Shown piece by piece: positions 5,551 through 64,000 of a DNA stretch of 64,000 nucleotides; positions within the stretch are counted from its first letter, which is position 1, and each line of letters starts with the position of its first letter. The notes under the pieces are model-generated. The model was not told the DNA's origin, searched no databases, and was given only the letters and a program-made list of their open reading frames with translations. Origin of the DNA: Aminivibrio sp. (GTDB taxonomy: Bacteria; Synergistota; Synergistia; Synergistales; Aminobacteriaceae); assembly GCF_016756745.1 (NCBI RefSeq), contig NZ_JAESIH010000059.1, positions 2,149 through 66,148 on the forward strand. Direction: 5' to 3'. A program made the position numbers and the translations under genes.

Positions 5551-6603
5551 CTATTTCATCGTCTCGTAAGATTCGCCGAAGGCCTTCATGGAGTTGTAGA
5601 TCTCTCCGAAGATCGCCGGTTCACTGGCCACCTTTTCCTCGTAAAATTTAGACGCTTCGGCTGCAAGGGCCGCGTTGACCTCCGCAGGGACCTTCAAAAC
5701 CTGGTTGCCCGCCGCCTTGAACTTTTCAAGGGCGATGATGGATTCATAGACAAGATACTCGTGCTGGGCCTGGGTGAAGCGGTCGATGAATGTCTGTACC
5801 AGGAGCTGCAGGTCCTTCGGCAGGGCGTTCCATGCGTCCTTGTTCACGAAGAATACCTGGGGATCGCTGGGAGCGCGTACGGGAGAAAGATAGACGTATT
5901 TCGCCACTTCGTTGAAGTGCATGTTCCAGTTGGAAGCAAGGGTGGAGTACTCAAAGGCGTCGATGGTACCGCGCTTCATGGCCTCGTAGAGCTCGCCGCC
6001 GGGAAGGATGACCGTGGCCATGCCCATTCTCTTCAGGATCTCTCCGGCGTCGCCCATGCAGCGGGCCTTGATGGTCTTCAGGTCTTCAACAGTCTCGATC
6101 TTCTTCTTGGAGTGGAAGAACACCTCTTCAGGAAGGGGGGAAAGGGCGCCCGGGAAGGTCATCACGTTGTAGCCTTCCATCATCTTGTTCATCAGGTCCG
6201 CGCCGCCGCCGTAGTTGAACCACGTGCGGAGGGCTTCGCCGGCGAGGGCGCCGGGGCGGGAGCTGACCAGACCTGCCGCCGACCATTTGTCGAGGTTGTA
6301 CATGGGGCACGTGTAGCAGAGCTGCAGCACGTTCTCGTGGACAGCGTCGACTTCCTTGTAGGCGGGGACGATGGATCCGCCGACGAAGGGCTTGATCTCC
6401 AGCCTGCCGCCGGAGGCTTCGGTGATGGCCTTGCAGAGCATGTCATGGTAGATCTGGGACGGGTCGGACGCCGGGCCGTGCCCGGAAGATTTCCAGACAA
6501 TCTTCTTCGGGGCGTCGGCGCCCTCGACCACGGCGGGCATAAAAGCCCCGACCACAAGGACGGGAACCAGCAGCGCGAACAACACTCTTCTCATAGCCCA
6601 CAT
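5551..6603 (-). CDS. dctP: TRAP transporter substrate-binding protein (DctP family)
   Basis: Signal peptide; SGGRLEIK, ELYEAMKRGTIDAFEY; GGAGG RBS. Confidence 0.88.
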   Translation of the reverse strand: MWAMRRVLFALLVPVLVVGAFMPAVVEGADAPKKIVWKSSGHGPASDPSQIYHDMLCKAITEASGGRLEIKPFVGGSIVPAYKEVDAVHENVLQLCYTCPMYNLDKWSAAGLVSSRPGALAGEALRTWFNYGGGADLMNKMMEGYNVMTFPGALSPLPEEVFFHSKKKIETVEDLKTIKARCMGDAGEILKRMGMATVILPGGELYEAMKRGTIDAFEYSTLASNWNMHFNEVAKYVYLSPVRAPSDPQVFFVNKDAWNALPKDLQLLVQTFIDRFTQAQHEYLVYESIIALEKFKAAGNQVLKVPAEVNAALAAEASKFYEEKVASEPAIFGEIYNSMKAFGESYETMK

Positions 6604-6835
6604 CTTTGTAACCTCCTTTGTATTTGGTGTTTCCCTACGGCAGGGGAGGAATTTCCCCGGCCCTGAACGACACCTTTTCAGAAGCTACTCGAAAAAGAGG
6701 GAACTGCCCGTCACGTTCCGGAAAAAGCCCGGGCAGACCGCATCGAGGCGATCCATGACATTTTTTCCGGTACAGCGGGACATACCGACGAGAAGAATAC
6801 CACTATTCTGAAGGTATTCGAAAAATTTTTCAAGC

Positions 6836-6855
6836 CCGCTGCCTGCGGATTTAGG
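6836..6855 (-). repeat. Solo right-type end of CCTAAATCCGC repeat family
   Basis: CCGCTGCCTGCGGATTTAGG, inverted copy of 3474-3493. Confidence 0.85.
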
Positions 6856-7041
6856 GGAAAAACGTTCTGTTGCAAAAACCCTTCTTTTTTGCTAGAGTTT
6901 CCATGGGTCTGTTATCGCAATTTTCCATTTTTTAGCAGAGAGGAGGGATGCCGTCCCTGCGAAAGGCCGAGGCACGAAAACAGGAGAAGTGCCCTGCTGA
7001 ACGTATCGTTGCGATACCGTGTGAAAAGGAGGCTGAAAACA

Positions 7042-7875
7042 ATGGCAGGCTTTTGCAGAAAAACGGTCCTGGTTCTGCTGGCGGCGGCTCTTGTTCTTCT
7101 CCCTGCGTCGGCTCCAGCCGCCGAACCGTCCCTCGCCGAGATCTACTCCATCCTGAAGACGAAAGAATTCGTCGACCTCACCCATACCTTCGACACCGAA
7201 ATACCCCACTGGCCCGGCTTTCCCAAGGAAAAGCGGGAAACCATCTACTGGTACGATAAGGGTGTGGGCGCCATGGGATACGGCTTTTTCGCCCAGGTTT
7301 TCTCCCACGTTGGACAGTGGGGAACCCACTGCGACGCCCCGGCCCATTTCGCAAGGGGGAAAAGGACTCTCGACCGGATCGGCGTAAAGGAAATGCTCCT
7401 TCCGCTGGTGGTCTTCGACGTCTCTGAAAAAGCGGCGGCAAACCCTGATTACGTTCTCACCCTCGAAGATGTGAAGGAATGGGAGAAAAAAAACGGTCCC
7501 GTGCCGGAGGGAGCCTTCGCGGCCATGAGGACCGACTGGTCGAAACGGTGGCCCGACGAGGCCGCCATGAGAAACGCCGACGCCTCCGGCACGGCCCACT
7601 ATCCCGGCTGGAGCCTCGAAGCACTGAAATACCTCTACGAGGAGCGGAAGATCACCGCCTCGGGGCACGAGCCCACGGATACTGACCCCGGGATTTCCAC
7701 GTCAAAGGGAGACTACACCTGCGAGGCCTATATCCTCGGCCAAGACAGGTACCAGATCGAGCTTCTCGCCAACCTGGACAAAGTGCCGGAAAGCGGTGCT
7801 CTCGTCGTGGTGGCCTTCCCCAAGCCCTTCTTCGGCTCGGGCTTCCCCGCCCGGGTTTTCGCCATTCTCCCCTGA
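7042..7875 (+). CDS. Cyclase/kynurenine formamidase-like metal hydrolase with signal peptide
   Basis: FVDLTH, QWGTHCDAPAHF, IELLANLDKVP; AGGAGG RBS before ATG 7042. Confidence 0.8.
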   Translation: MAGFCRKTVLVLLAAALVLLPASAPAAEPSLAEIYSILKTKEFVDLTHTFDTEIPHWPGFPKEKRETIYWYDKGVGAMGYGFFAQVFSHVGQWGTHCDAPAHFARGKRTLDRIGVKEMLLPLVVFDVSEKAAANPDYVLTLEDVKEWEKKNGPVPEGAFAAMRTDWSKRWPDEAAMRNADASGTAHYPGWSLEALKYLYEERKITASGHEPTDTDPGISTSKGDYTCEAYILGQDRYQIELLANLDKVPESGALVVVAFPKPFFGSGFPARVFAILP

Positions 7876-16016: not shown

Positions 16017-17750
16017 GTGCAGACCGTCATGAAAGGAATCGGGGCCTCTCCGGGCATAGCCATTGGCAGGGTAGTCATTCACTGGAAAGAACAGATCGAC
16101 ATCCTTCGGGAGTTTGTCGAGGAGCCGGAGCGGGAGCTCGAACGGTTTCAGACGGCCCTCGAGTTTGCCGGAGAGCAGATCAGGGAGACCTACTCCAGGG
16201 TACTTGAAAGCGTCGGTCCCGGCGAGGCGGACATCTTCAGGTCCCACGGCATGATGCTGAAGGACCCCGATTTCGTGGGGCAGATCGAGCGCATGATCCT
16301 CGACGAGAACGTCAACGCCGAATGGGCGGTGAAGCAGGTGGCCGACAGCCTCATCCAGATTTTCGAGAGCATGGGCAACGACTATATGAAGGCCCGCTCC
16401 GACGACGTGAAGGATATCTCCGACCGGGTTATCAAGCTGCTCCTCCAGATCGGCGGGATCGACCTCTCGAACCTCAGGGAGCCTTCCATAATAGTGGCGA
16501 GAGAACTCACCCCCACGGACATCTCCCAGATGGACAGAGAGATGACCCTCGGCATGGTGTCGGAAACGGGAGGAAAGACCTCCCACACGGCCATTCTCGC
16601 CAGGACCCTCGAAATTCCTGCCGTCATGGGGGTAAAGAAGCTGCTGGACGAGGTGGAAAACGACGACCTTATGATCATCGACGGTGAAACGGGACAGGTC
16701 TTCGTGAACCCCGACGGAGAGACGGTAGAGCGTTACCGGGAACGGCTGGACCGGTACGAATGCTTCAGGAAAAGCCTCTCTGAAGTGCGGGGGATGAAAA
16801 CCGTCACCCTTGACGGCCTGGAGATCGAGCTCGAGGCCAACGTGGCCTCTCCGAAAGATCTGGACGACGTCTTCAAGAACAACGGGGATGGCATCGGACT
16901 CTACAGGACCGAATTTCTCTATTTCGACAGTTCCCTCCTCCCTCCCGAGGACATCCAGTTCGAGCAGTACAGGATCGTGGTGGAGGCCATGAAGGGAAAG
17001 CCGGTGGTCATCAGGACCCTCGACATAGGAGGGGACAAGAAGCTGGACTACCTCTCCATTCCCGAAGAGCAGAACCCCTTCCTGGGCTACCGGGCCATCA
17101 GGCTCTGCCTTGACCGCCAGGAAATATTCAAGGTCCAGCTCAGGGCTATCCTCAGGGCCAGCGCCTTCGGTCATGTCCGCATCCTCTTTCCCATGATCTC
17201 GAGCCTCGGGGAGCTCCGCTCCGCAAAAGCCATCCTTGAGGAGACAAAAGAAGATCTCCGATCCCAGGGCGTACCCTTCGACGAATCCGTCCAGTCGGGC
17301 ATCATGGTGGAGGTGCCATCGGCGGCCATCCTCTCCGACCACTTCGCCCGGGAAACGGACTTTTTCAGCATCGGGACCAACGACCTCATCCAGTATGTCG
17401 TGGCGGTGGACCGGGGGAACGAAAAGCTTTCCCATCTCTACTCCCAGTACCACCCGGCGGTGCTCCGGCTTATAAAAACAGTCATCGACAACGGAAAGGC
17501 CGCGGGAATTCAGGTCGGGATGTGCGGCGAATCCGCCGGAGACCCGAAACTCATCCCCATCCTCCTCGGCATGGGGCTCACGGAATTCAGCATGAACCCC
17601 TCGTCCATCCTCCAGGCACGGTGGATCCTCCGGAACCTCCGGAAGAGCGACCTGGAGGAGGCGGCCCTGAAGACCCTGTCGCTGGCCACGGCCGAAGAAG
17701 TAGAGGAATACTGCTCAGAGCTGCTCCAGTCTCTTAACCTCTGCCGCTGA
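16017..17750 (+). CDS. ptsI: PTS enzyme I, phosphoenolpyruvate-protein phosphotransferase
   Basis: GIGASPGIAIG, SHTAILAR phospho-His, GIGLYRTEF, FSIGTNDL, GMCGE. Confidence 0.95.
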   Translation: MQTVMKGIGASPGIAIGRVVIHWKEQIDILREFVEEPERELERFQTALEFAGEQIRETYSRVLESVGPGEADIFRSHGMMLKDPDFVGQIERMILDENVNAEWAVKQVADSLIQIFESMGNDYMKARSDDVKDISDRVIKLLLQIGGIDLSNLREPSIIVARELTPTDISQMDREMTLGMVSETGGKTSHTAILARTLEIPAVMGVKKLLDEVENDDLMIIDGETGQVFVNPDGETVERYRERLDRYECFRKSLSEVRGMKTVTLDGLEIELEANVASPKDLDDVFKNNGDGIGLYRTEFLYFDSSLLPPEDIQFEQYRIVVEAMKGKPVVIRTLDIGGDKKLDYLSIPEEQNPFLGYRAIRLCLDRQEIFKVQLRAILRASAFGHVRILFPMISSLGELRSAKAILEETKEDLRSQGVPFDESVQSGIMVEVPSAAILSDHFARETDFFSIGTNDLIQYVVAVDRGNEKLSHLYSQYHPAVLRLIKTVIDNGKAAGIQVGMCGESAGDPKLIPILLGMGLTEFSMNPSSILQARWILRNLRKSDLEEAALKTLSLATAEEVEEYCSELLQSLNLCR

Positions 17751-17775
17751 AGGAAAAGGGGACTTCCCCTTCCGG

Positions 17776-18117
17776 ATGGATTATAATAAGTCCATGAACG
17801 ATGTCGTCCTTACTGACCGGGAACATCCGCCCTTGCCCGAGATGCTGCGCCCCCTCTTCTGGGACGCGGAATGGACGGCTGTGGATTTTGACAGGAACAG
17901 GACGGCGGTGATTGAACGGATTCTGAACCTCGGGAACGAAGAACAACTTGCCTGGCTCCGCCGGAATGTCTCGCTGGACGAAATCCGCGCCGTGGTATCC
18001 TCGAGCAGGCGGCTCAGCAGAAAGACGGCCCGGTGCTGGCAGAACTTTTTCGGGCTCAGGGAGGAGGAAATGCGGTGTTTTGGGATGTTCTCGACAAACC
18101 CAGACAATCTCTTCTGA
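17776..18117 (+). CDS. DUF6922-type small protein, putative antitoxin
   Basis: LFWDAEW...VIERILNLGN pattern; overlaps the downstream nucleotidyltransferase; start uncertain. Confidence 0.7.
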   Translation: MDYNKSMNDVVLTDREHPPLPEMLRPLFWDAEWTAVDFDRNRTAVIERILNLGNEEQLAWLRRNVSLDEIRAVVSSSRRLSRKTARCWQNFFGLREEEMRCFGMFSTNPDNLF

Positions 18118-18713
18118 AGAGCATGGTCGCCTCCCCGCCCATCCCGGGAGCCTACCTGGCGGGAGGAACGGCCCTTGCCCTGCAGTACGGTCACCGGCTT
18201 TCCGAGGATTTCGACTGGTTTCTGCCCGAAAGCTTCGATCCAGGGAAACTGCCCGCCCTTCTCGAACCCTTCGGGACAGTCTCGGTGGCGGAGACCCATG
18301 CCGGGACCTTCCACGGATGGATCGACGGCATCCGGGTGACATGGCTCCATTACCCCAACCCCCTCCTGGACCCCCTCCAGCAGGTTCCGAACATTCCCGG
18401 ACTTCTGCTCTCCTCACCCCGGGACACGGGGCTCATGAAATGGGCCGCCCTCTCCGACCGGGGTGCCCGGAAGGATTTTCTCGACCTTTACGAACTGGGG
18501 CTTCAGGGAATCACCCTCGAAGAGCTCTTTCTCCTCCTGCCCAGAAAATTCCCCGGCCGGCGCCTCAACCTCTACCACATGATCAAGGGACTGAGCTACT
18601 TTGACGACGCCGAGCACGACCCCTGGCCCGTCATGCTCAGGGACGTGAGCTGGAGCGCCCTCCAGCGGTATTTTCTCTCCTCCCAGACCAGACTGCTCCG
18701 CTCCCTCCCTTGA
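18075..18713 (+). CDS. AbiEii/AbiGii-family nucleotidyltransferase toxin
   Basis: YLAGGTALALQYGHRLSEDFDWF, KWAALSDRGARKDFLDLY; GTG start after GAGGAGG. Confidence 0.82.
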   Translation: MFWDVLDKPRQSLLKSMVASPPIPGAYLAGGTALALQYGHRLSEDFDWFLPESFDPGKLPALLEPFGTVSVAETHAGTFHGWIDGIRVTWLHYPNPLLDPLQQVPNIPGLLLSSPRDTGLMKWAALSDRGARKDFLDLYELGLQGITLEELFLLLPRKFPGRRLNLYHMIKGLSYFDDAEHDPWPVMLRDVSWSALQRYFLSSQTRLLRSLP

Positions 18714-51544: not shown

Positions 51545-51976
51545 TCACTTCATCTTCATCGTGACCGGATCTCCCGTTCTCACTTCTCCGCCCCGGATCA
51601 CCCGGAGAAAGTACCCCGCCGTGGGCAGAAGGCACCAGCCCCGGTAATCGTAGCTGTGGGGCTCCCCCGGTTTCTTGCCTTTCTCGATGACTTCCAGAAG
51701 CACAGAATCCCCAACCTTGAGGACCGTTCCGACGGGCAACTCTTCGGGGAGCCCTTCCACCACGAGGTTCTCGGCGAGGGATCCCGGTGGAAAGGCAAAA
51801 CCAGCCTCTTCTTCCGCCTTCCGGATATCCTCGGCCCGAAGCAGGCTCACTTCACGCTCCGTTACACCCCTGTGGGAGTCGCCCTTGATTCCTCCCGGAA
51901 GGAACAGGGCCCGCTCCACCTCCGTTTTCGGTTTCCGCCGTTCAGTGCTCAGGCAGACGGCCGTCACTGCCGCCAT
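51545..51976 (-). CDS. MOSC-domain protein
   Basis: GIKGDSH, REVSLL, AENLVV, RVIRGGEVRTGD. Confidence 0.8.
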   Translation of the reverse strand: MAAVTAVCLSTERRKPKTEVERALFLPGGIKGDSHRGVTEREVSLLRAEDIRKAEEEAGFAFPPGSLAENLVVEGLPEELPVGTVLKVGDSVLLEVIEKGKKPGEPHSYDYRGWCLLPTAGYFLRVIRGGEVRTGDPVTMKMK

Positions 51977-52066
51977 GGATCTCACTCCCCACCAATACGT
52001 TATATGATGAAAAAAACAGTTCTATAATACGATAGACGGCAAAAAAAGGCGAGGCCACTCACCTAG

Positions 52067-52345
52067 CCTAAATCCGTAGTTTTTCCTGGCGGAGGGGGTG
52101 TCACCGGGCATGAGGCGGATTCGCCCAGCCGGGGGCGAAGAGATCTCGCTCCGCGCTCTTTGCGGAGGGATTCCATTGGGGGACGGCGCAGGGGCGGTAA
52201 ACCGGCACGGATGCCGGTTTCACAGGCAGGCATCCGGCGAACGCTGGGAGCCGCGATGATCGCCTGGGCAGCTGTCATGGAGACAATCCGCGCCCCCCGC
52301 ACCAAGCGAGCGCCGGCGACGCTCCACGTTGCCTGCGGATTTAGG
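52067..52345 (+). mobile_element. Full-length MITE-like element (279 bp), non-coding, with internal hairpins
   Basis: TIRs CCTAAATCCG / CGGATTTAGG; hairpins 52120-52139, 52149-52167, 52199-52220. Confidence 0.8.
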
Positions 52346-52358
52346 CCTCAGGCGAATA

Positions 52359-52544
52359 TCAGGATCCAACGTCGTCCAGGGGGGATTCCATTGGGGGCAT
52401 TCCCCTGGACAGAATTTCGTAACCGTAAACTTTTCCCTCGGCGACGTCCAGAATGGGCTGGAACACCGGGAGAATCCCCCCTTTTTCGAGAAGTTTCCCC
52501 AAAAACAGACCATAGGATTTTTCCTGCACGATGAAAGATCTCAT
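52359..52544 (-). pseudogene. EAL-domain phosphodiesterase relic (N-terminus fused to LDDVGS motif)
   Basis: PVFQPILD...YGYEILSRG...ESP joined to LDDVGS*YS; RBS retained; ends 13 bp from the MITE right end. Confidence 0.75.
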
Positions 52545-52614
52545 TTACGTTCTCCCTCCCGCTTTGTCTGCAGGAACTTTAGCACCGCAACGCAACTTCC
52601 GGGTAAACGTTCTG

Positions 52615-52769
52615 TGCACTTTTCATGGCCTTCCTGGCGGTCTACCTCGGGCTTTCCCAGCATGTCTCCGGCCTCGGCATCACCCTGCTCTCCACCGGGC
52701 TGGCCATGTTCATCTACCGGCTCAGCGTGGGATCCCCCGTGAACCCCCCCACGGTACAGCCTTTCACCC
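52615..52769 (+). repeat. Exact 155-bp copy of 58380-58534 (internal to ABC permease gene)
   Basis: Base-by-base comparison from TGCACTTTTCATGG to CCTTTCACCC found no mismatch. Confidence 0.92.
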
Positions 52770-52776
52770 GTGTTCT

Positions 52777-54111
52777 TCAGGCCATCCGCGGCAGAAGCAC
52801 CGGAAGGACTTCCTTTTCCTCTCCGCTCCCCCTTGGGGTGACGGAGAAGTCAACGCGCCGCTTCTTCCCGCCCCAGGTCAAGGTCCGCTGCGCCGGGGCC
52901 GTCTCGGCGATGACAGAGCCGTTCCGCACCGACCACAGGCACTCGCTCTGGAGCCGGATCGCATCGAACCGGTCAGAGGCGTCGAGGACCAGGAGATTCG
53001 CAGGCTTTCCCGGTTCGATGCCGTAGCGCTCCTGCACGTTCATGGTCCGGGCGGAATTGACTGTGATCATGTCGAAAAGACGTAAAATCCGGCTGTAGCC
53101 GCTCATGTGGGCCGTGTGGAGCAGGAGGTTCGCCGCAGCGAGCATGGATCCCTTTCCCATGGGGTACCAGGGGTCCATGATGGAGTCATGGCCGATACAG
53201 ACGTTCAGCCCGGCTGCGTCCAGCTCGTCCACCCGGGTGTGTCCCCTGCGGCGGGGGTAACCGTCCGTCCGGTTCTGGAGCACCGAATTGTCGAAGGGAA
53301 GGGTGATGAAATTCATCTTCGCCCGCCGGAAAATGCCCATGAGCTTCAGGGCGTAGTCGTTGTTGTAATTGTGCATGGCCGTGGTATGGCTCGCTGTCGC
53401 CCGGGGCCCCATGCCGGTGGCGATGGCGCATTTGGCCATGACCTCGACAAACCGGGACTGGTCGTCCCCCGTCTCGTCGCAGTGGATGTCCACAAGCCGG
53501 CCGTACTTCTCCGCCAGCTCGAAGGCCAGCTCCACGGACCGGACGCCGTCCTCCCGGGTCAGTTCGTTGTGGGGTATGGCACCGACGCAGTCGCATCCCA
53601 TCTCCACGGCACGGCGAAGATTTCTCTCGCCGTCGGGGATGGTGTAGATGCCGTCCTGGGGAAAAGCCACCACCTGGATGTCGGTGATCTCCCGCATCTC
53701 GTCCTTCAGTTCCAGCAAGGCCTCTACCGTGACCAGGGAGGGGTCGGTGGTGTCGGCGTGGGTCCTGATGAACTGCACGCCGTTGGCAGCCTCCCAGAGG
53801 ACGGCTTCCCTGGCGTTCCGGAGAATCTCTTCCTTTGTGACTCCGGGGCGGCGCTCGCCCCAGATGGCGATGCCCTCGAGGAGAGTGCCCGAGGCATTGT
53901 ACCGGGGCGATCCCACGGTAAGGACCGCGTCGAGGTGGAGGTGAGGGTCGGCGAAGGGAGGTACAACCAGCCTGCCGCCCGCGTCGATCTCCTTGGCCGC
54001 TCCGAAGTCCAGCCGCTTCTCCACGGCGGCGAACACCCCGCCGTTGATGCCGATGTCCGCGATTTCTCCGTCTGCAAGCCGTGCCCTGCGAATAATCAGG
54101 TCCATGGTCAT
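52777..54111 (-). CDS. codA: Cytosine deaminase (bacterial CodA type), Ser at the Asp314-equivalent position
   Basis: PHLHLD, VAFPQDG, IHCDE, TASHT, GHDSIMDPWYPMG. Confidence 0.88.
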   Translation of the reverse strand: MTMDLIIRRARLADGEIADIGINGGVFAAVEKRLDFGAAKEIDAGGRLVVPPFADPHLHLDAVLTVGSPRYNASGTLLEGIAIWGERRPGVTKEEILRNAREAVLWEAANGVQFIRTHADTTDPSLVTVEALLELKDEMREITDIQVVAFPQDGIYTIPDGERNLRRAVEMGCDCVGAIPHNELTREDGVRSVELAFELAEKYGRLVDIHCDETGDDQSRFVEVMAKCAIATGMGPRATASHTTAMHNYNNDYALKLMGIFRRAKMNFITLPFDNSVLQNRTDGYPRRRGHTRVDELDAAGLNVCIGHDSIMDPWYPMGKGSMLAAANLLLHTAHMSGYSRILRLFDMITVNSARTMNVQERYGIEPGKPANLLVLDASDRFDAIRLQSECLWSVRNGSVIAETAPAQRTLTWGGKKRRVDFSVTPRGSGEEKEVLPVLLPRMA

Positions 54112-54434
54112 TTCCCCTCTTTTCATATTTATGCCACCGGTTGCACATTTTAACATAAAGGGGGCCCGGTGTCCATGGCTGACAAAAATTTCCGGAATTC
54201 TCGTTACATCTCACCATTGACACGGGTTGAAGGCAACCGTTTAATGATGTAAATGGGCATTTCGTCGGCACATTTCTGATAAAATAAGATACAATCCTTA
54301 TCCTGCACCGGAACGAACGGGGAGGTGAGCCGGAAAAGTCAGTCCGCCGGGAAAGGGTGCGTCCGAACGGCAGTTTGGGGAAGCGTCCGCGGCACTTGCG
54401 GCCGCTGCTACCGAGACCAGGGAGGTGTTATCTT

Positions 54435-55427
54435 TTGAGGAAAAACGTATTGGCGTTGTCGATGGTATTTGTCCTTCTCCTCGCCGGAACCGCGTCGGCG
54501 GAGGCAAAGGAATACAAGGACTTCAAGCTGGCCGCCGTATTCCAGACGGCCATCGAGGAACCCTGGGACGGGGCGATCCACCAGGCCTGCATCCTTCTGC
54601 AGAAGGAACTCGGCTTCACGTACGAATTCACAGAGAAGGTGGGAGCGGCGGACTTCGAGCGGGTTCTCAGGGAGTACGCCGAGAGAGGCTTCGACCTCAT
54701 CGTGGGAGACGCTTTCCTGGCAGGGGAGGAGCCTTCCCGCAGGGTCGCGAAAGATTACCCGGAAGTCGCCTTCGCCTTCGGGTCAGAGTTCACCTTCCAG
54801 GAACCAAACTACTCCGTGTTCGACAACTGGATTCATGAACCTTCCTACCTCTGCGGCGTCATCGCAGGCCGCATGACAAAAACCAACACCCTCGGCATCG
54901 TCGCCGCCATTCCCATCGCGGAAGTCAACCGTCTCGTCCACGCCTTCAAGCTAGGTGCCCTTTCGGTCAACCCCAGCGTCAAGGTGAAGGTCGCCTACAT
55001 CGGAAGCTGGTTCGATCCCCCCAAGGCCAAGGAAGCGACCCTCGCCCAGATCGAGGCGGGAGCCGATCTGATTTTCGCCGAACGGTTCGGCGTGTTCGAG
55101 GCGGCCAAGGAGAAGGGGGTCCTCGCCTTCGGCAACATGATGGACCAGCATGCCCTCGCGCCCGAGGTAGTCGTCACGGGACCGGTGTGGAACATGGAAC
55201 CCACTGTCCGCCATTGCATCGACACCGTGAGAAACAAGGAATGGAAGGCCGAAGACCTGAGGGAGTGGTCCATGTTGGCCCGGGGCGGCGCATATCTCGC
55301 TCCCTTCCACGAGTTCCAGCAGAAACTTCCTCCAGAAGTGATCAGGGAAGTCCGGGAACTGGAATCGAAGATCATGAACGGCCAGTTCACCGTGCCCATC
55401 ATCGAGACCGAGCTGAAGACGGACTGA
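54435..55427 (+). CDS. BMP-family (nucleoside/purine) ABC transporter substrate-binding protein
   Basis: Signal peptide; YLCGVIAGRMTKTN, GSWFDPPKAKEA; TTG start after GGAGG. Confidence 0.88.
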   Translation: MRKNVLALSMVFVLLLAGTASAEAKEYKDFKLAAVFQTAIEEPWDGAIHQACILLQKELGFTYEFTEKVGAADFERVLREYAERGFDLIVGDAFLAGEEPSRRVAKDYPEVAFAFGSEFTFQEPNYSVFDNWIHEPSYLCGVIAGRMTKTNTLGIVAAIPIAEVNRLVHAFKLGALSVNPSVKVKVAYIGSWFDPPKAKEATLAQIEAGADLIFAERFGVFEAAKEKGVLAFGNMMDQHALAPEVVVTGPVWNMEPTVRHCIDTVRNKEWKAEDLREWSMLARGGAYLAPFHEFQQKLPPEVIREVRELESKIMNGQFTVPIIETELKTD

Positions 55428-55520
55428 TTGCCGCTCCGGGGGCGGGCCCTCCTGCCCGCCCCTTTCGTCTTTATCCTTTATTCTCAGTGTATTCGCAGCT
55501 ACCCGAAAGGGGTGGATACA

Positions 55521-57095
55521 ATGCCTACTGACAGGCCTGCCATGAGCGCCGTACAGGGGGAAGTGCCGGTCTCCGGGCACACAGCCCCTCCCTGCGTCGT
55601 GGAAATGCGCTCCATTACCAAGACATTTCTCGACGTCACGGCAAACAGCGACGTGAACTTTTCGCTCAGGGAAGGGGAAATCTGCGCTCTTCTCGGAGAG
55701 AACGGCGCCGGTAAGACCACGCTCATGAACATTCTCTTCGGCTATTACGCCGCCGACAGCGGAGAAATCCGCATCGGGGGGGAAAAAGTTACCTTTTCCT
55801 CCCCCAGGGACGCCATCGCCTGCCGCATCGGCATGGTCCACCAGCACTTCACCCTGGTGCCGTCCCAGACCGTGCTTGAAAACGTGGTGGTGGGAAGCGG
55901 CGGAGGGAGATTCTTTCTCGATCTTTCCGGTGCGCGGAAAAAACTGCTCACCCTTCAGGACCGTTTCGGACTCCACGTGGACCCCGACGCCCCGGTATGG
56001 ACCCTCCCCATAGGCGGGCAGCAAAAGGTGGAGATTCTGAAGGCTCTCTACAGGGACGCCCGCATCCTGATCCTCGACGAACCCACGGCGGTGCTCGCTC
56101 CCTTGGAAACCAAGGAGCTTTTCGCGACCCTTCGCACCCTCGCAGCGGAGGGCTGCTCCATAATCTTCATCTCCCACAAGCTCTATGAGGTTATGGAAAT
56201 CGCCGACCGCGTGGTGGTGCTCACGAAGGGAGTACTCACCGCCGAGAGGAAGGTCTCCGAGACCAGCGAACGGGAGCTGGCCAAACTCATGGTGGGCCGG
56301 GAACTCGCGGAGAAGAAGCGTCCTGCCAGGGGAACCCCGGGAAGCCCTCTTCTGGTCGTCCGGGGCCTGACAGTGAAGAACGACAGGAACCTCGAGGCAG
56401 TAAAGGATCTCTCCCTGGAGGTCCGCTCCGGAGAGATCCTGGGCATGGCCGGGGTTTCCGGCAACGGGCAGAGAGAGCTCGCGGAAGCCCTGTTCGGCCT
56501 CCGGAAGCCCGTTTCGGGCACCATCTCCGTGGACGGCAGAATCCTTCCCCCGGGCCGCCCGAAAGCTTCGGTGGACAGCGGCATGGGGAGAATACCCGAG
56601 GACAGGATGACTACCGGCCTCCTCCTGGAGCTTTCCGTGGAGGAAAACCTCGTGCTGGAAAACCACGGGAAATTCCGCTCCATGGGTATGCTGGATCACG
56701 GCGCCATTGGGCGGCACGCCGACCGGCTCATTTCCGAATTCAACATCAGGACCGACGGCAGGACGGCCAAGGCCCTGACGCTTTCGGGAGGAAACCTCCA
56801 GAAGATCATCCTGGCCCGGGCGCTTTCGGCGTCGCCGAAAGTGGTGGTGGCTGCCCAGCCCACCAGGGGACTCGACGTGGGGGCCATCGAATACATCCAC
56901 TGGCGGATCGTGGATGCCAGGGCAGGCGGCGCGGCAATTCTTCTCATCTCCGAGGATCTCGACGAAATATTCGGACTCAGCGACCGGATCGCCGTCATGT
57001 ACGAAGGCCGCATCATGGGCATAGCCGACGGCGGCTCAGCGTCCAGGGAGCGGATAGGACTCTGGATGAGCGGGGTGAACGAACCATGCGTATGA
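55521..57095 (+). CDS. Nucleoside ABC transporter ATPase (tandem NBD)
   Basis: GENGAGKT, GMVHQHF, LILDEPT, LSGGNLQK, QPTRGLD. Confidence 0.9.
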   Translation: MPTDRPAMSAVQGEVPVSGHTAPPCVVEMRSITKTFLDVTANSDVNFSLREGEICALLGENGAGKTTLMNILFGYYAADSGEIRIGGEKVTFSSPRDAIACRIGMVHQHFTLVPSQTVLENVVVGSGGGRFFLDLSGARKKLLTLQDRFGLHVDPDAPVWTLPIGGQQKVEILKALYRDARILILDEPTAVLAPLETKELFATLRTLAAEGCSIIFISHKLYEVMEIADRVVVLTKGVLTAERKVSETSERELAKLMVGRELAEKKRPARGTPGSPLLVVRGLTVKNDRNLEAVKDLSLEVRSGEILGMAGVSGNGQRELAEALFGLRKPVSGTISVDGRILPPGRPKASVDSGMGRIPEDRMTTGLLLELSVEENLVLENHGKFRSMGMLDHGAIGRHADRLISEFNIRTDGRTAKALTLSGGNLQKIILARALSASPKVVVAAQPTRGLDVGAIEYIHWRIVDARAGGAAILLISEDLDEIFGLSDRIAVMYEGRIMGIADGGSASRERIGLWMSGVNEPCV

Positions 57096-58144
57096 TCATC
57101 ACGAAACGGGCCCCCCTTCCCGGGTGGGTCCAGGCGCTTGTCCCCGTGGCAGCCATCCTGGTGACCCTCATCCTTTCGGCCGTTCCCATTCTCATCGCCG
57201 GAGGGGACCTCTGGCTCTCCTACACGTCTCTCTTCAGGGGAGCCTTGGGCACCAGGTACAACTTCCTCGAGACCTGCGTGAAGGCCGCTCCTCTGACCTT
57301 TACCGGTCTGGCCGTGGCCTTCGCCTTCCGGGCGAAGTTCTGGAACATCGGCGCCGAAGGACAGCTTCTCGCCGGGGCCATCGCCGCCACCTGGGTGGGC
57401 ATAAACGCCCCGGCTCTTCCGAAGGCTGCCGTGCTGGTCCTCGTCTGCGCTGCGGGCTTTCTCGCCGGGGGCCTCTGGGCCACCGTCCCCGCCCTGATGA
57501 AGACGAAATACAGGGTGGATGACGTGGTCACCACCCTTCTTCTGAACTACGTCATGTGGCACATTATGGGATACCTGCTCTTCGGCCCCCTCCAGATGCC
57601 GAACTCGAGCTGGCCGAGGTCGCCCGCCATAGCGGAACTGGCCAGGTTCCCCGTGCTCCTGGCCCGCTCCCGGTTCCACCTCGGCATCGTGCTTGCGGTC
57701 GCTGCGGTCCTCATCGTCTGGTTCATCAACTCGAAGACCGTCTTCGGCTATCAGTCCCGGGCGGTGGGCGTCAACCCCAGGGCGGCGGCCTTCGGGGGCA
57801 TCGACGTCAACTCCGTGATCATCAGGACCGCCGTCCTTTCCGGAGGGCTCGCGGGAATGGCGGGCGTGGGTGAAGTGGCCGCCATTCACTTCCATCTCCT
57901 CATGGACGTCTCGCCGGGATTCGGGTACTCGGGCATCGTCATCGCCATGCTGGGGAGGCTTCATCCCCTGGGGACGGCCCTCGCGGCCTTCTTCTTCAGC
58001 GTGATTATCGTGGGAGCCCAGTCCATGAGCAGGCTCACCGGCGTCCCGACCTACATCGCCGAGGTGATCCAGGGCATGGCCCTCATCGTGATGCTCATCG
58101 CCCTCCTCCTCACCGAATACCGCATAAAGGCGGTGAAAGACTGA
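57086..58144 (+). CDS. Nucleoside ABC transporter permease
   Basis: FWNIGAEGQ, AVGVNPRAAAFGGI, GFGYSGIVIA. Confidence 0.9.
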   Translation: MRMIITKRAPLPGWVQALVPVAAILVTLILSAVPILIAGGDLWLSYTSLFRGALGTRYNFLETCVKAAPLTFTGLAVAFAFRAKFWNIGAEGQLLAGAIAATWVGINAPALPKAAVLVLVCAAGFLAGGLWATVPALMKTKYRVDDVVTTLLLNYVMWHIMGYLLFGPLQMPNSSWPRSPAIAELARFPVLLARSRFHLGIVLAVAAVLIVWFINSKTVFGYQSRAVGVNPRAAAFGGIDVNSVIIRTAVLSGGLAGMAGVGEVAAIHFHLLMDVSPGFGYSGIVIAMLGRLHPLGTALAAFFFSVIIVGAQSMSRLTGVPTYIAEVIQGMALIVMLIALLLTEYRIKAVKD

Positions 58145-59088
58145 TGGAACAGGTATTCACCCTCTCCTTCATCACCGGCCTCCTCGCCGCCATGATGCGC
58201 ATGGCTACCCCCATCATCTTCGGCACCCTTGGGGAAATTCTCAGCGAGCGGGCAGGCGTCCTCAACCTGGGCATCGAGGGAATTATGCTCATGGGCGCCA
58301 TGACGGGCTTCCTCACCACCCTCGCCACCGGATCCCTCTGGCTCGGCGTGGCAGCGGCCGCACTGATCGGCGCTCTCCTTGCACTTTTCATGGCCTTCCT
58401 GGCGGTCTACCTCGGGCTTTCCCAGCATGTCTCCGGCCTCGGCATCACCCTGCTCTCCACCGGGCTGGCCATGTTCATCTACCGGCTCAGCGTGGGATCC
58501 CCCGTGAACCCCCCCACGGTACAGCCTTTCACCCAGACGGCCATTCCGTACCTGTCGGAGCTGCCGGTTGTCGGTCCCGCTTTTTTCACTCAGTACACCT
58601 TGGTCTACTGGGCGTTTCTTCTCATCCCGGCCCTCTGGATCCTTCTTTACAGGACGACCTGGGGCCTGGCCATCCGCACCGTGGGTGAAAACCCCCTCGC
58701 TGCCGATACAGTGGGCATCAACGTCAACCTCGTCCGGACCCTCTGCCTGGCGGCAGGAGGGGCCCTCATGGGCATCGGAGGCGCTTTCCTTACCCTCGCC
58801 CACCAGAACATGTTCCTCATCGATGTGGTGGGAGGCAGGGGATGGATCAGCATCGCCATGGTCATCTTCGGCAATTGGGATCCCCTCCGGGGAGCGGCGG
58901 GCGCCCTCATCTTCGGCTTCCTCGACGCCCTGCAGCTCCGCCTCCAGGGGCTGGGCTTCGACATTCCCTTCCACCTGTTTCTTCTCATCCCCTACCTGAT
59001 GACGGTCGTCGCCCTTGTCAGCGTGTCGCGGAGAGCCGCGGCCCCGGCAGGGCTTCTAAAGCCCTACCGACGGGAAGAAAAAGGCTAG
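58144..59088 (+). CDS. Nucleoside ABC transporter permease
   Basis: SERAGVLNLGIEG, GENPLAADTVGI, GRGWISIA, PYLMT. Confidence 0.9.
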   Translation: MEQVFTLSFITGLLAAMMRMATPIIFGTLGEILSERAGVLNLGIEGIMLMGAMTGFLTTLATGSLWLGVAAAALIGALLALFMAFLAVYLGLSQHVSGLGITLLSTGLAMFIYRLSVGSPVNPPTVQPFTQTAIPYLSELPVVGPAFFTQYTLVYWAFLLIPALWILLYRTTWGLAIRTVGENPLAADTVGINVNLVRTLCLAAGGALMGIGGAFLTLAHQNMFLIDVVGGRGWISIAMVIFGNWDPLRGAAGALIFGFLDALQLRLQGLGFDIPFHLFLLIPYLMTVVALVSVSRRAAAPAGLLKPYRREEKG

Positions 59089-59140
59089 AGACTTTCTCCC
59101 CGGGGAGAAAGAGTACTATCGACAGACAGGAGAGTGCAGC

Positions 59141-61468
59141 ATGACACAGCGATATGTCGGAAAGAGCGTCCAGAGAGTGGATGCGGTGAAAAAAGCGACC
59201 GGCGAGGCTTGTTTCGTGGCCGACATTACCCTTCCCCGGATGCTCCGCGCCAAAGTCGTCCGGGCGGGCATCCCCCACGGGAAAATCCTTTCCATCGACA
59301 CGTCGGTCGCGGAAACAATGCCCGGAGTGAAGAAGGTCGTCACGGGGCAGGGATGCTCCATGTTGTTCGGCACCTGCCTCTGGGATCAGCCGCCCCTGGC
59401 GGTGGACAAGGTTCGCCATGCCGGCGAACCGGTAGCGGTGGTGCTGGCGGAGACGGAGAACCAGGCCGAAGCGGCGGCGAAGGCGGTGAAGATCGAATAC
59501 GAAAAACTGCCCTTCGTCCTCGACCCAGTGGAGGCCGCTGCACCCGGAGCTCCCCTGATCCATGAAAAGAACGGCTCCTACCGCAGGGTGGAGTACGTGG
59601 TCCATCCCGTTCCCGGAACCAACATCTTCCACCACTACAAGCTCCGCAAGGGGGAGAGCGAAAAAGGCTTCGCCGAAGCGGATGTCACCGTGGAAGACGA
59701 GTTCGAATTCCCCATCTCGAGTCATGCCGCCATCGAACCCCACGGGGCGGTGTGCAGGTTCGGCGCTGACGGGAGTATAGAGATCTGGGCCTCAAACCAG
59801 GCCCCCTTCGTCCTCCGGGACGTGCTGGCCGACATGTTCAAAATCCCTTCCTCGAAGGTTCGGGTCCACATCCCCTACCTCGGGGGCGGCTTCGGCGGCA
59901 AGTCCGACGTCTCCATCGAACCCATGGTGGCCTATGCGGCCGGCTTTGTCCCGGGATACGCCGTGAAACTCGTTCTCACCAGGAAGGAGGACATCATGGG
60001 TTCCCTGGCGGGGCGGGGCATGAAGGGGAAGATGAAGATCGGGGCGAAGAAGGACGGCACCCTCACGGCGCTGAAGGCAGAGATGTACTTCGCCGACGGG
60101 GCCTACGGCGACACCGGATGGCCCGTGGATACCGTGGCAGGACACAACTGCACCGGCCCCTACGAGTTCCCCCACGTCACGGTGGACGTGTACGGGATGT
60201 ACACCAACACCCCCAACGTGGGAGCCTACCGGGGATACGGCCACCCCGAAGGGCAGTTCATGTCGAGCCGCCTCCTGGACATGCTGGCCCGGAAGCTCGG
60301 CATGACTCCGGGCGAACTCATGCGGAAGAACTTCCTGTCCGAAGGGCGGCAGAACGCCCTAGGCCAGGTGATAAAAAAGAGCCACGGTGATCTTCCGGGA
60401 TGCCTCGCCGCCGTGGAGAAGGCCCTGGATCAAACACCCCTCCCGGAGAACGACAACCGGTACCTCTACGGCAGGGGCATCGCCTCCATGATGAAATCCC
60501 CCAAGATGTCCTCCAACGCGGCCTCCACCTGCACCGTCCAGATCAACGCCGACGGCTGCGCCTTCGTGAACCTTTCGGGGATCGAGATGGGGCAGGGAGT
60601 CCAGACCGTATTCGCCCAGATGGCGGCGGAGGCCCTTCAGATCCCCTTCGAGAAGGTGAAGACCTACTCGGAGGTGGACACCCAGTTCTCCCCATGGGAG
60701 TGGCAGACCGTGGCCTCCATGCAGACCTACAGGGGCGGCCGGGCCATACAGGACGCCTGCGGGCAGATCATCGCCATCGCCAAGGAAACGGCGGCGATGG
60801 CATGGAACTGCTCCCCGTCCCTGATAGTCTACAGGGACGGGGAATGCGTCCATCCCAATACGGGCGAGACTCTTTCCCTGGCGAACCTGGCCAGGGGATA
60901 CATGGCCCCCGACTGCCTTACCATAGGGGCTCCCCTGGCAGCCACGGGCTGGTACCGGGTTCCCGGGCTCGTGGAGCCCGACCCGGAAACGGGCATGGGC
61001 AACGCCGCAGGAAGCTGGACCTTCGGAAGCCAGGGCTGCACCCTCAGGGTGGACCGGCAGACCGGGGAAGTGAAGATCCTTCATTTTGCCTCGGCCTTCG
61101 ACGTGGGGAAGGCCGTCAATCCAACCACCGCAAGGGGCCAGGTCACAGGCGGTGTGGTCCAGGGTATGGGGGCTGCCCTCATGGAGAAAATTCTCTTTAC
61201 CGACGACGGCGTGGCGAAGAACGTCAACTTCCCGGCCTACAAAATACCGAGGCTGAAGGACGCCCCGGAGAAACAGACCGTGGAGCTGCTGGAGACACCC
61301 AACCCCGAGGGCCCATGGAGCGCCAAGCCCATGGCGGAACACCCCATCGTGGCGGTGGCCCCGGTGATCCTCAACGCCCTCCGGGACGCTACGGGAGTGG
61401 AATTCACATCTCTTCCGGTGACACCGGACAAAATACTCGAAGCCCTCAGGGCAAAGGAGGCCCGGTAA
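59141..61468 (+). CDS. Xanthine dehydrogenase-family molybdopterin-binding subunit
   Basis: WASNQ, GGGFGGK, AYRGYG, EMGQG, DVGKAVNP, GQVTGGVVQG, KPMAE. Confidence 0.9.
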   Translation: MTQRYVGKSVQRVDAVKKATGEACFVADITLPRMLRAKVVRAGIPHGKILSIDTSVAETMPGVKKVVTGQGCSMLFGTCLWDQPPLAVDKVRHAGEPVAVVLAETENQAEAAAKAVKIEYEKLPFVLDPVEAAAPGAPLIHEKNGSYRRVEYVVHPVPGTNIFHHYKLRKGESEKGFAEADVTVEDEFEFPISSHAAIEPHGAVCRFGADGSIEIWASNQAPFVLRDVLADMFKIPSSKVRVHIPYLGGGFGGKSDVSIEPMVAYAAGFVPGYAVKLVLTRKEDIMGSLAGRGMKGKMKIGAKKDGTLTALKAEMYFADGAYGDTGWPVDTVAGHNCTGPYEFPHVTVDVYGMYTNTPNVGAYRGYGHPEGQFMSSRLLDMLARKLGMTPGELMRKNFLSEGRQNALGQVIKKSHGDLPGCLAAVEKALDQTPLPENDNRYLYGRGIASMMKSPKMSSNAASTCTVQINADGCAFVNLSGIEMGQGVQTVFAQMAAEALQIPFEKVKTYSEVDTQFSPWEWQTVASMQTYRGGRAIQDACGQIIAIAKETAAMAWNCSPSLIVYRDGECVHPNTGETLSLANLARGYMAPDCLTIGAPLAATGWYRVPGLVEPDPETGMGNAAGSWTFGSQGCTLRVDRQTGEVKILHFASAFDVGKAVNPTTARGQVTGGVVQGMGAALMEKILFTDDGVAKNVNFPAYKIPRLKDAPEKQTVELLETPNPEGPWSAKPMAEHPIVAVAPVILNALRDATGVEFTSLPVTPDKILEALRAKEAR

Positions 61469-61469
61469 C

Positions 61470-61940
61470 ATGCCTGTCCTCAACTTCACCGTCAACGGCA
61501 TTCCCAGGACCGTCCATCTCGAGGAAGGGAGGGTCATGCTCTCCTCCGTGCTCCGGGACTGTCTCGGCCTCACGGGAACCAAGGTCGGCTGCGGCACGGG
61601 GCAGTGCGGTTCCTGTACGGTGGTCATGAACGGCAGTGCGGTGACAAGCTGCACCGTTCCGGCGGAAAAGTGCGAGGGCTCCGAAGTGCTCACCATCGAG
61701 GCTCTTGCCGAAGGCGGCGTGCTTCATCCCATCCAGCAGGCCTTCGTGGACGCGGGAGCGATCCAGTGCGGCTTCTGCACCCCCGGCCTCATCATGAGGC
61801 TGTACGCCCTTCTCACTGCGAATCCGGAGGCCGGCGACGAGATCCTGGAAGCGGAGATCAACAAACACCTCTGCCGCTGCACCGGCTACGAGACGATCCT
61901 CGCCGCAGCCCGGCTTGCGCGGGAAAGAATGACGAAATAA
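61470..61940 (+). CDS. 2x[2Fe-2S] small subunit (XdhC/CoxS-like)
   Basis: GCGTGQCGSC...SC, QCGFCTPG, CRCTGY. Confidence 0.92.
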   Translation: MPVLNFTVNGIPRTVHLEEGRVMLSSVLRDCLGLTGTKVGCGTGQCGSCTVVMNGSAVTSCTVPAEKCEGSEVLTIEALAEGGVLHPIQQAFVDAGAIQCGFCTPGLIMRLYALLTANPEAGDEILEAEINKHLCRCTGYETILAAARLARERMTK

Positions 61941-61986
61941 CGGGAGGGGGCTCCGTCTCTTCCCGAAAAGAAAGGAGAATGAATCC

Positions 61987-63195
61987 ATGGCTTTCAGTCT
62001 TCTGGTCAAAAACGCGCGGACCCGCTTCTCCGGCGGAAAGCTTCTTTCCATCGGCATCGAGGGCGAAAAAATCGCCGCTCTGGGGGAAAACCTTCCCGAG
62101 GGTGGAGCGGCGCAGGTCATCGACGCCGAAGGCAGGCTCGTCACCGAGTCCTTCGTGAACGGCCATCTTCATCTCTGCAAAGTCTACACCCTCGAGATGG
62201 TGGGCCAGGACGCCCTTTCCTCCTACCACGGCGGCTCCATGGGAGGCGCCATGACGGCCATCGAGCAGGCCTCCAGGGTGAAGGACAATTACGATGAAAA
62301 ATGGATCATCGAAAACGTCCGGAAGGCCTGCCGCCTCGCCCGGAAGTACGGCAACACCCACATCCGCGCCTTCGCCGACACGGACACCAAGGCCAAGCTC
62401 GAGGGCGTCAAGGCCCTGATCAAGGCCCGGGAGGAATTCAAGGACATCGTGGACCTCCAGGTGGTGGCCTTCCCCCAGGACGGCGTGGTACGCGACCCCG
62501 GCGCCGAAGATTACATCAGGAAGGCCATGGAGCTGGGAGCGGACGTGGTGGGCGGCATTCCCTGGATCGAGTACACCGATGCCGATATGCAGGAACATAT
62601 CGACAGGATGTTCGCCCTGGCAAAGGAGTTCAACAGGGACGTCTCCATGCTCATCGACGATGCCGGCGACCCGGGTCTCAGGTCCCTGGAGATGCTGGCG
62701 GTGAAGACGCTGAAGGAAGGCTGGCAGGGGCGGGTCACCGCCCAGCACTGCAGGGCCATGGCCATGTACCGGGAGCCCTACTTCCGCAAGATCCTGGCCC
62801 TGCTCAGGAAAGCCTCCATCGGCCTGGTGAGCGATCCCCAGACAGGCCCGCTCCACGCCCGGGTCCGGGACCTCTACGACGCAGGCGTGGCCGTCGCCCT
62901 TGGTCAGGACGACATCGCCGACGCCTACTACCCTTTCGGCAGGAACAACATGCTGGAAGTGGCCTTCCTGGCGGTCCACCTGCTGTGGATGACCACCTTC
63001 AGCGACATGGAGATCATCTACGACCTTATCACCACCAACGCGGCAAAGGCCATGGGCATCAGGGGACACGTCCTCGAGCCCGGCGGGAACGCCGACCTGG
63101 TGGTGCTGAACGCCAACGACGTCTACCACGCCATCTGGGAACACGAAGCCCCCTTCAGGGTCATCAGGAAGGGAAAGGACGTCACCCTGAAATAA
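61987..63195 (+). CDS. CodA/AtzC-like amidohydrolase with atypical metal/catalytic residues
   Basis: NGHLHL, VAFPQDG, SMLIDD (in place of HCDE), AQHC, GQDDIADAYYPFG. Confidence 0.8.
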   Translation: MAFSLLVKNARTRFSGGKLLSIGIEGEKIAALGENLPEGGAAQVIDAEGRLVTESFVNGHLHLCKVYTLEMVGQDALSSYHGGSMGGAMTAIEQASRVKDNYDEKWIIENVRKACRLARKYGNTHIRAFADTDTKAKLEGVKALIKAREEFKDIVDLQVVAFPQDGVVRDPGAEDYIRKAMELGADVVGGIPWIEYTDADMQEHIDRMFALAKEFNRDVSMLIDDAGDPGLRSLEMLAVKTLKEGWQGRVTAQHCRAMAMYREPYFRKILALLRKASIGLVSDPQTGPLHARVRDLYDAGVAVALGQDDIADAYYPFGRNNMLEVAFLAVHLLWMTTFSDMEIIYDLITTNAAKAMGIRGHVLEPGGNADLVVLNANDVYHAIWEHEAPFRVIRKGKDVTLK

Positions 63196-63553
63196 CCCTC
63201 CGAAGCACGGCATGCCCCTCCTGCCGGAGGGACATGCCTTTCCTGAACCCAAGGAACCTCCGAATAATGTCGATGAATGTGTCAAAAAAACAGATTCTAT
63301 CGGGTCCCGTGAGGACAAATTATTTTTTTCATAACTTCCCTGAATAAACGAAACGGTCACTTCCTTCAGGTCTTTCTCCTCCAGGGTGCCGGCATTTCAC
63401 CGGTTGCGCCGCCAGATGTTTTCAGGCCATCCGGAAGCAGCGAAACAGGCGCATCAATCGTCCTTTTCCTTCATAACCCCGTCAGGAGCCTTCCTGGAAT
63501 GAATGGTATAATTTGATTACACTGCTCCACACATAAATCGGGAGGAATATTGC

Positions 63554-64000
63554 ATGCCATCACTCAGGGGAACGAAAACAGAAGAGAACCTCATGAAAGC
63601 CTTCGCAGGCGAGTCGCAGGCGCGGAACAGGTACAGTTACGCCTCCTCCGCGGCAAAAAAGGAAGGATACGTGCAGATTTCCAACATCTTCGCCGAGACG
63701 GCTGAAAACGAGAAAGAGCATGCGAAGCTCTTCCTCAAGTTCCTTGTCAATGACGTCAACGGCAGCATGGTGACCATACACGCCGACTATCCCGTGGGCT
63801 TCGGCGACACGAAGGAAAACCTCCTCGCCGCCGCAGAGGGGGAGCACGAGGAGTGGGGGACGCTGTATCCCGAATTTGCGAAAATCGCCGAAGAAGAAGG
63901 TTTCAGGGAAGTAGCCCGGGTTTTCCGCGAGGTGGCCGAGGTGGAAGAACGGCATGAGAAACGGTACCGGAAGCTCCATGCCAACCTGACCGCCGGAACG
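63554..64000 (+). CDS. rbr: Rubrerythrin (partial, runs off the window)
   Basis: My translation (not in the ORF track): [27 protein letters not shown]...ENEKEHAK...EGEHEE...EERHE; GGAGG RBS. Confidence 0.9.

Follow-up and report, generated by a model that had tools for sequence, protein, structure and literature searches.

Deletion between short direct repeats has reportedly been studied by Lovett and co-workers in engineered E. coli constructs, where it is said to proceed either by RecA-dependent crossing-over or by replication slippage. In amplification studies of Salmonella and E. coli, the join points of tandem duplications are later remodelled by deletion. Tandem duplication via microhomology has been described in bacteria (PMC11111574), and in Acinetobacter baylyi short-patch double illegitimate recombination generates templated microindels, in which an ectopic strand is inserted at microhomologies (bioRxiv 10.1101/2023.11.22.568220). 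A separate body of work concerns regulatory 3' UTRs and mRNA-mRNA pairing in bacteria (reviewed in PMC7821165), with vigR of S. aureus (PMC9217812) and hly-prsA2 of Listeria (PMC8722363) as cases; the known pairings are short, imperfect and conserved, and their effects have been demonstrated (PMC7821165, PMC9217812, PMC8722363).

The DNA analyzed here, called the window, is a stretch of 64,000 nucleotides from an uncultured Synergistaceae (Aminivibrio-like) species. In it, identical direct repeats bracket a module consisting of a codA-like gene and an ABC importer, and a form in which the module has been looped out exists in nature, a point that the initial annotation of this DNA had missed. 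The locus resembles the engineered E. coli repeats in that the repeats are identical, direct, about 150 bp long and a few kilobases apart, and in that the product keeps one repeat while the interval is precisely lost; both the substrate and the product were observed here. It differs from them in being a natural metagenome polymorphism and not a measured rate. Unlike insertion sequences or rRNA repeats, the repeated unit is an ectopic gene fragment. We conclude that the fragment is a rearrangement scar, real but of an ordinary kind, and that it is accompanied by a deletion polymorphism in nature. As a whole explanation, we propose, with a probability of roughly three in four, that illegitimate recombination left a duplication scar which is now a substrate for loop-out, and that the antisense stretch which the scar adds to codA is an accidental by-product.

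In a self-comparison of the window, positions 52615-52769 and 58380-58534 are identical at all 155 bases, in direct orientation with both copies on the + strand, and are spaced 5,765 bp apart from start to start. The runner-up repeat between 48 and 64 kb is only 28 nt long at 79% identity, which excludes a chance origin of the 155-bp identity. A search of the whole draft genome (2.94 Mb in 100 contigs) returned exactly these two copies. The pair consists of direct copies whose unbroken identity is well above the minimal pairing length, as required of a substrate for deletion; at 155 bp and a strain divergence of about 0.2%, the identity of the copies is uninformative on selection. The source copy (58380..58534) occupies codons 79-131 of ABC permease 2 (58144..59088, + strand), an intact BPD_transp_2 protein of 314 aa and the last gene of the importer. 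The ectopic copy (52615..52769) is separated by the 7-nt spacer GTGTTCT (52770..52776) from the stop codon of codA (52777-52779). Since the ectopic copy is in sense orientation on the + strand, it would be antisense inside any codA transcript that reads through it.

The codA-like amidohydrolase lies on the - strand (52777..54111; 444 aa as called in JGI contigs) and has Amidohydro_3/Amidohydro_1 domains. Alternative starts are found at 54126 and 54156: the 459-aa open reading frame from the first ATG has no exact-protein match in public assemblies, and the 449-aa and 444-aa starts are matched. The C-terminus of the protein is native, as the sister-species ortholog aligns to residues 1-443 of 444. 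Divergent from codA, on the + strand, is a Bmp-type ABC importer composed of a Bmp/PnrA-type binding protein (54462-55427), an ATPase (55605-57095), permease 1 (57092-58144) and permease 2, followed downstream by a xanthine-dehydrogenase-like gene set. The initial annotation had reported an exact 155-bp permease copy by the codA stop, its source inside the permease gene, and a transporter operon divergent from codA. All of this holds: every coordinate of the repeat is correct, the permease gene is intact, and the importer genes at 54462-59088 run opposite to codA.

Comparison with relatives shows what the ectopic copy belongs to. In two sister species with the same gene order, 42 bp separate the MOSC-gene side from the codA side, as against 711 bp here; homology with the sisters extends on the MOSC-gene side up to window position 52056 and resumes on the codA side at 52768. 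The 42 bp of the sisters are part of a codA-strand terminator with an 8-pair stem (7 G-C pairs), a 4-nt loop and a T7 tract. The 3' arm and T7 tract of this ancestral terminator are retained here on the - strand (52040..52064, from the sister-species comparison), with the 3' arm and T tract kept at 52040-52056, and a patchwork of three tiles stands in place of the 5' arm and some 40 nt. The window haplotype has a weaker, 7-pair hairpin ahead of the retained T tract.

The first tile, recognized by a repeat and end search, is a MITE-like repeat of 281 bp (52066..52346) at the loop of the ancestral codA terminator; it is short and non-coding, has 14-nt terminal inverted repeats matching at 13 of 14 positions, and has more than 100 dispersed matches in the genome. 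When its flanks were checked for a target-site duplication, the right flank turned out to be the second tile, not ancestral spacer, and the left end was strain-polymorphic. The second tile (52353..52622, - strand), hereafter the EAL relic, is the 5' part of an EAL-CBS-GGDEF gene and is 95% identical to C65:13503-13752 of the same draft; some 78 bp from upstream of the gene are kept together with codons 1-57, after which about 101 codons have been deleted internally relative to the C65 paralogue (605 aa), and what remains is an open reading frame of 61 aa (52359-52544). The last tile is the 155-bp permease fragment. We also considered the fragments as cargo of the MITE in the manner of a Pack-MULE; this was rejected, because the EAL relic and the permease fragment lie outside the MITE inverted repeats and no second flanking end was found.

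Several further observations concern this patchwork and its repeats. The left end of the MITE (window 52030-52116) varies among strains: ACTCACCTAG and 9 more bases are present in the window and in SRR23823824 and missing from the JGI series, GCA_030156175.1 and SRR11566984, and only in the window haplotype has the 7-pair hairpin been re-formed before the old codA T7 tract. All MOSC-gene contigs break at the MITE; among them no pre-duplication form was found, and two MITE-end haplotypes were seen. An open reading frame of 40 codons on the - strand (52541-52663) begins inside the antisense fragment and ends with an ATGA overlap onto the start of the 61-aa frame of the EAL relic (52359-52544, - strand), which keeps its own ribosome-binding region; both frames were gene-called in one JGI contig, and their overlap is probably fortuitous. 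In a sister species (G002:C1:179372-179817), a 38-nt segment from the interior of the MITE is repeated at least five times, every 48 bp, between the two terminal modules of the element. Another family of repeats, about 168 bp long, is present in many copies that are 97-100% identical on different contigs (for example C60:41969-42134, C61:25073-25238 and C65:17853-18020), which suggests a recently or currently active MITE of a different age from the 281-bp family, whose members are 70-85% identical. Two other pairs of same-contig direct repeats, C88:2067-2652 with 6568-7153 (586 bp, 100% identity, 4.5 kb apart) and C8:14583-15558 with 17527-18502 (976 bp, 98.8%, 2.9 kb apart), may represent additional substrates for recombination or duplications of recent date.

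The ectopic fragment was copied from the same genome and is missing from the orthologous site of the relatives, as expected of a duplication scar. Among the nine other species of the genus, three carry the permease sequence (G002, G005 and G003), each as a single copy, and no second permease fragment was found in any of the nine. The two ends of the fragment were resolved by three-way comparison. At the left junction the C65 paralogue reads ...CTGTTACACTTTGG, the permease ...CCTTGCACTTTTCA and the window ...CTGTGCACTTTTCA, giving a 6-nt microhomology, CACTTT, as judged against the 95%-identical paralogue and not the true parent. At the right junction (marked by a slash) the permease reads ...TTCACCC/AGACG, the sister species ...GTGTACC/GTGTTC and the window ...TTCACCC/GTGTTC, leaving a microhomology of 1-2 nt, CC. 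Microhomologies of this size suggest illegitimate recombination, and no transposon or inverted-repeat ends were found flanking the fragment.

Independent public assemblies of very close strains were retrieved by exact-protein look-up, and they represent three methods of assembly: metaSPAdes-type, MEGAHIT and Logan at k = 31. Their metagenome contigs are consensus sequences of strain mixtures. The junction between the EAL relic and the repeat occurs in eight other datasets, and the junction between the repeat and codA in five other public assemblies, so that the copy which the initial annotation proposed to look for in related strains is indeed there. In JGI 3300034683, a 17-kb contig follows window 51903-64000 collinearly (99.7% identity) and has both copies intact, and in JGI 3300034684 a contig of 5,852 bp runs from inside one copy to inside the other and carries the repeat/codA junction. 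Logan contigs of SRR11566984 and SRR34848658 (k = 31) span codA to the 5' part of permease 2 and stop 30 bp inside the repeat at both ends; in a de Bruijn graph, a repeat that truly exists in two copies is expected to stop contigs at k - 1 = 30 bp in just this way. The Logan contig of SRR35934453 crosses the repeat/codA junction in the same way.

Two contigs from this collection deserve separate mention. In ENA ERZ27252305, contig k141_3664 (L022) joins the EAL relic to a mosaic repeat, part of which matches window 52615-52772: the first 73 nt are identical to this species, and the distal half with the next 4 nt has eight substitutions of the G005 type. The contig may be a MEGAHIT chimera or, alternatively, a real inter-lineage recombinant. 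An older, diverged junction of relic and repeat is a less likely reading, since a mosaic of this species and a G005-like allele favours an assembly chimera. In Logan SRR23823811, an unbranched contig covering window 57657-59155 runs from the 5' part of permease 2 through the repeat to its 3' part, with A>G at 58383; such a path hints at a further strain that has no ectopic copy or in which that copy is too thinly covered. The literature was also searched for the identifiers of the samples and assemblies, with no match.

In four other assemblies a one-copy form was found, in which the EAL relic is followed by a single repeat and the 3' part of permease 2, with 52769 joined to 58535. These are JGI 3300034685 (L017), where the form lies on an 8.8-kb contig that reaches from the xanthine-dehydrogenase-like genes to an MCP gene, ENA ERZ27252304 (a MEGAHIT assembly), and Logan SRR23823822 and SRR23823824 (both k = 31). 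The four contigs (L017, L021, L033 and L128) are 99.4-100% identical to the predicted recombinant, and the interval has been lost precisely: the missing unit is 5,765 bp (52770..58534) and comprises codA, the Bmp binding protein, the ATPase, permease 1, the 5' part of permease 2 and one copy of the repeat. The deletion form therefore is without the first 78 codons of permease 2. Among three consecutively numbered samples from a single project, JGI 3300034683 has the two-copy form, the graph of 3300034684 is broken at the repeat and 3300034685 has the deletion form; this difference may be a population shift between the samples.

Single-nucleotide differences allow the two forms to be placed on strain backgrounds. 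The repeat/codA junction is present on at least three haplotypes about 0.2% apart, namely the window, the type of JGI 3300034683, JGI 3300034684 and SRR11566984, and the type of SRR34848658, with 12 differences over 5.7 kb and a single mismatch when its two copies of the repeat are compared. The duplication is therefore older than the strain split. This bears on an option of the initial annotation, a very recent duplication scar near the MITE: the scar does lie beside the MITE, and "very recent" overstates how young it is. The deletion form occurs on two backgrounds, with T or C at 58600, and hence has probably recurred or spread by recombination.

Based on the junctions, we propose a two-step origin as the most economical route, although no full tandem-duplication intermediate was found. 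First, 5,765 bp from codA up to position 58534 in permease 2 would have been duplicated in tandem, with the repeat/codA junction as the join point at the CC microhomology. Second, a deletion between the EAL relic and position 58379 in the first copy, at the CACTTT microhomology, would have left only the last 155 bp of that copy; since the deleted copy was redundant, this would have cost nothing. The same product could also come, in a single step, from a double template switch in the course of replication or repair. By either route, the identical direct repeats now serve as a substrate for homologous loop-out of the codA and ABC-importer module, and repeated recombination from two copies to one would fit the presence of the deletion on two backgrounds and of the repeat/codA junction on three. 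The scheme recalls the duplication join points of the amplification studies: the repeat/codA junction has 1-2 nt of microhomology, and a 155-bp remnant is what would be expected after an internal deletion. It differs from those studies in that the pathway is read from the junctions alone. It is also similar to the events in Acinetobacter baylyi, where local sequence gives way to a stretch from elsewhere in the genome and both ends show microhomology; unlike those events, the fragment here is one part of a larger patchwork that also contains a MITE and a pseudogene.

The order of events might instead be reversed, which we consider unlikely. If the deletion form came first, a 5.8-kb microhomology deletion would have fused the EAL relic to permease 2 at 58380, and the repeat would later have been joined beside the codA stop of an intact locus via homology-facilitated illegitimate recombination; alternatively, a circular unit from codA to the repeat would have been integrated into the single repeat. 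Such an order agrees with the relic/repeat junction being the same in both forms, as a single deletion at a 6-nt microhomology would suffice to make it, with the patchwork replacing the ancestral spacer and not merely interrupting it, and with the coexistence of both forms in related samples. However, it needs an extra rare illegitimate join to create the repeat/codA junction, whereas ordinary homologous recombination is enough to pass from two copies to one. The occurrence of the deletion form on two SNP backgrounds also speaks against it, and neither a circle nor an intermediate was observed.

A second alternative gives the fragment a function. The initial annotation had raised the possibility of an antisense switch in the codA 3' UTR, and its premise is sound. 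On the codA strand, the fragment is perfectly complementary over 155 nt to codons 79-131 of the permease 2 mRNA. As the initial annotation had stated, there is no terminator between codA and the copy: our scan found no terminator-like site on the - strand between the codA stop and the fragment or inside the fragment, and the first such site downstream of codA is at 52064-52047. With the terminator some 710 nt more distant, read-through from codA should add to its transcripts 155 nt that can pair with the permease 2 mRNA, unless Rho or processing intervenes. A gene for RNase III is encoded in the genome. In an evolved trans-acting device, the codA 3' UTR would pair with the permease 2 mRNA and lead to its cleavage by RNase III, making the expression of codA and of the importer antagonistic, as a negative feedback or a mutual exclusion.

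Beyond the complementarity, which starts only 7 nt past the stop, the displacement of the ancestral codA terminator by 711 bp and the RNase III gene, such a device is consistent with the persistence of the arrangement on at least three strain haplotypes and with the known cases of bacterial regulatory 3' UTRs and mRNA-mRNA pairing (PMC7821165, PMC9217812, PMC8722363). As in those cases, a coding mRNA would carry a trans-pairing segment in its 3' UTR in a cell that encodes RNase III. In contrast to vigR and hly-prsA2, the segment is 155 nt long, perfect and species-specific, and is known here from sequence alone. Conservation speaks against the idea: the arrangement is missing from all nine other species of the genus, including the two with the same gene order. 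The fragment also sits among junk, beside a MITE and a decayed EAL relic, and the whole locus has been deleted in four natural datasets, so it is repeatedly lost and dispensable. The fold of the 771-nt - strand region downstream of codA is ordinary, with nothing beyond shuffled controls (z = -1.19). In addition, both arms are probably induced together from the divergent promoters, and a switch that lets one exclude the other is then hard to rationalize. We therefore judge an evolved device to be quite improbable, and in our view the antisense stretch is an accidental by-product. That it has a measurable, if incidental, effect on the permease mRNA is possible, though we doubt it. Equally improbable as the evolved device is that we are looking at a newborn regulatory RNA, in which, with the arrival of the fragment and the loss of the terminator, the codA mRNA would have become a trans-acting antisense RNA directed at the importer. 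If this were true, RNase III would couple expression of the deaminase to shut-down of uptake, and the locus would have a counterpart in plants, where microRNA genes are born from duplicated fragments of their targets.

Less probable again is that the one-copy contigs are path errors, in which assemblers ran straight through the repeat in samples that truly hold the two-copy form only. The repeat, at 155 bp, is longer than k in all the assemblers and gives ambiguous paths, and the ends of two contigs (L021 and L022) are strain-chimeric. However, a two-copy genome must branch at both ends of the repeat in a k = 31 graph, and this branching is seen in SRR11566984, SRR11566985 and SRR34848658, yet in SRR23823822 and SRR23823824 the path from the EAL relic through the repeat to the 3' part of permease 2 is unbranched. 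The edges to codA and to the 5' part of permease 2 are therefore absent or negligible in these two datasets; the start of their contigs at 52560 is explained simply by 31-mers further left that also occur in the C65 paralogue. MEGAHIT, which used no pair information, also went straight through the repeat. Finally, look-ups with the exact codA and permease 1 proteins gave no match in any of the four deletion-form datasets, whereas the look-up with a xanthine-dehydrogenase-like protein matched two of them, JGI 3300034685 and SRR23823822. The last alternative, misassembly of the window itself, with a second copy or a junction that exists in no molecule, was offered by the initial annotation and could appeal to the 100-contig draft and to a repeat of about short-read length, yet it can hardly be credited and is rejected, because both junctions recur across independent assemblies (relic/repeat in eight other datasets, repeat/codA in five, by three assembly methods), both copies stand on the single 17-kb contig of JGI 3300034683, the Logan contigs (k = 31) end exactly 30 bp inside the repeat, and microhomologies of 2-6 nt are too short for the junctions to come from mis-joins in a k-mer graph.

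Taking the duplication scar as the preferred reading, an exact repeat flagged from raw sequence proves to be real biology and not an assembler error. A small fragment left by a rearrangement at the level of microhomology makes a whole module for nucleobase uptake and deamination unstable and excisable, and the two states, module present and module looped out, are both documented in wild populations of one uncultured species. Should the antisense by-product have an effect, the locus would offer a rare view of a regulatory RNA at birth. As it stands, it shows cleanly and in a natural setting how very small duplication scars give rise to presence/absence variation of operons.
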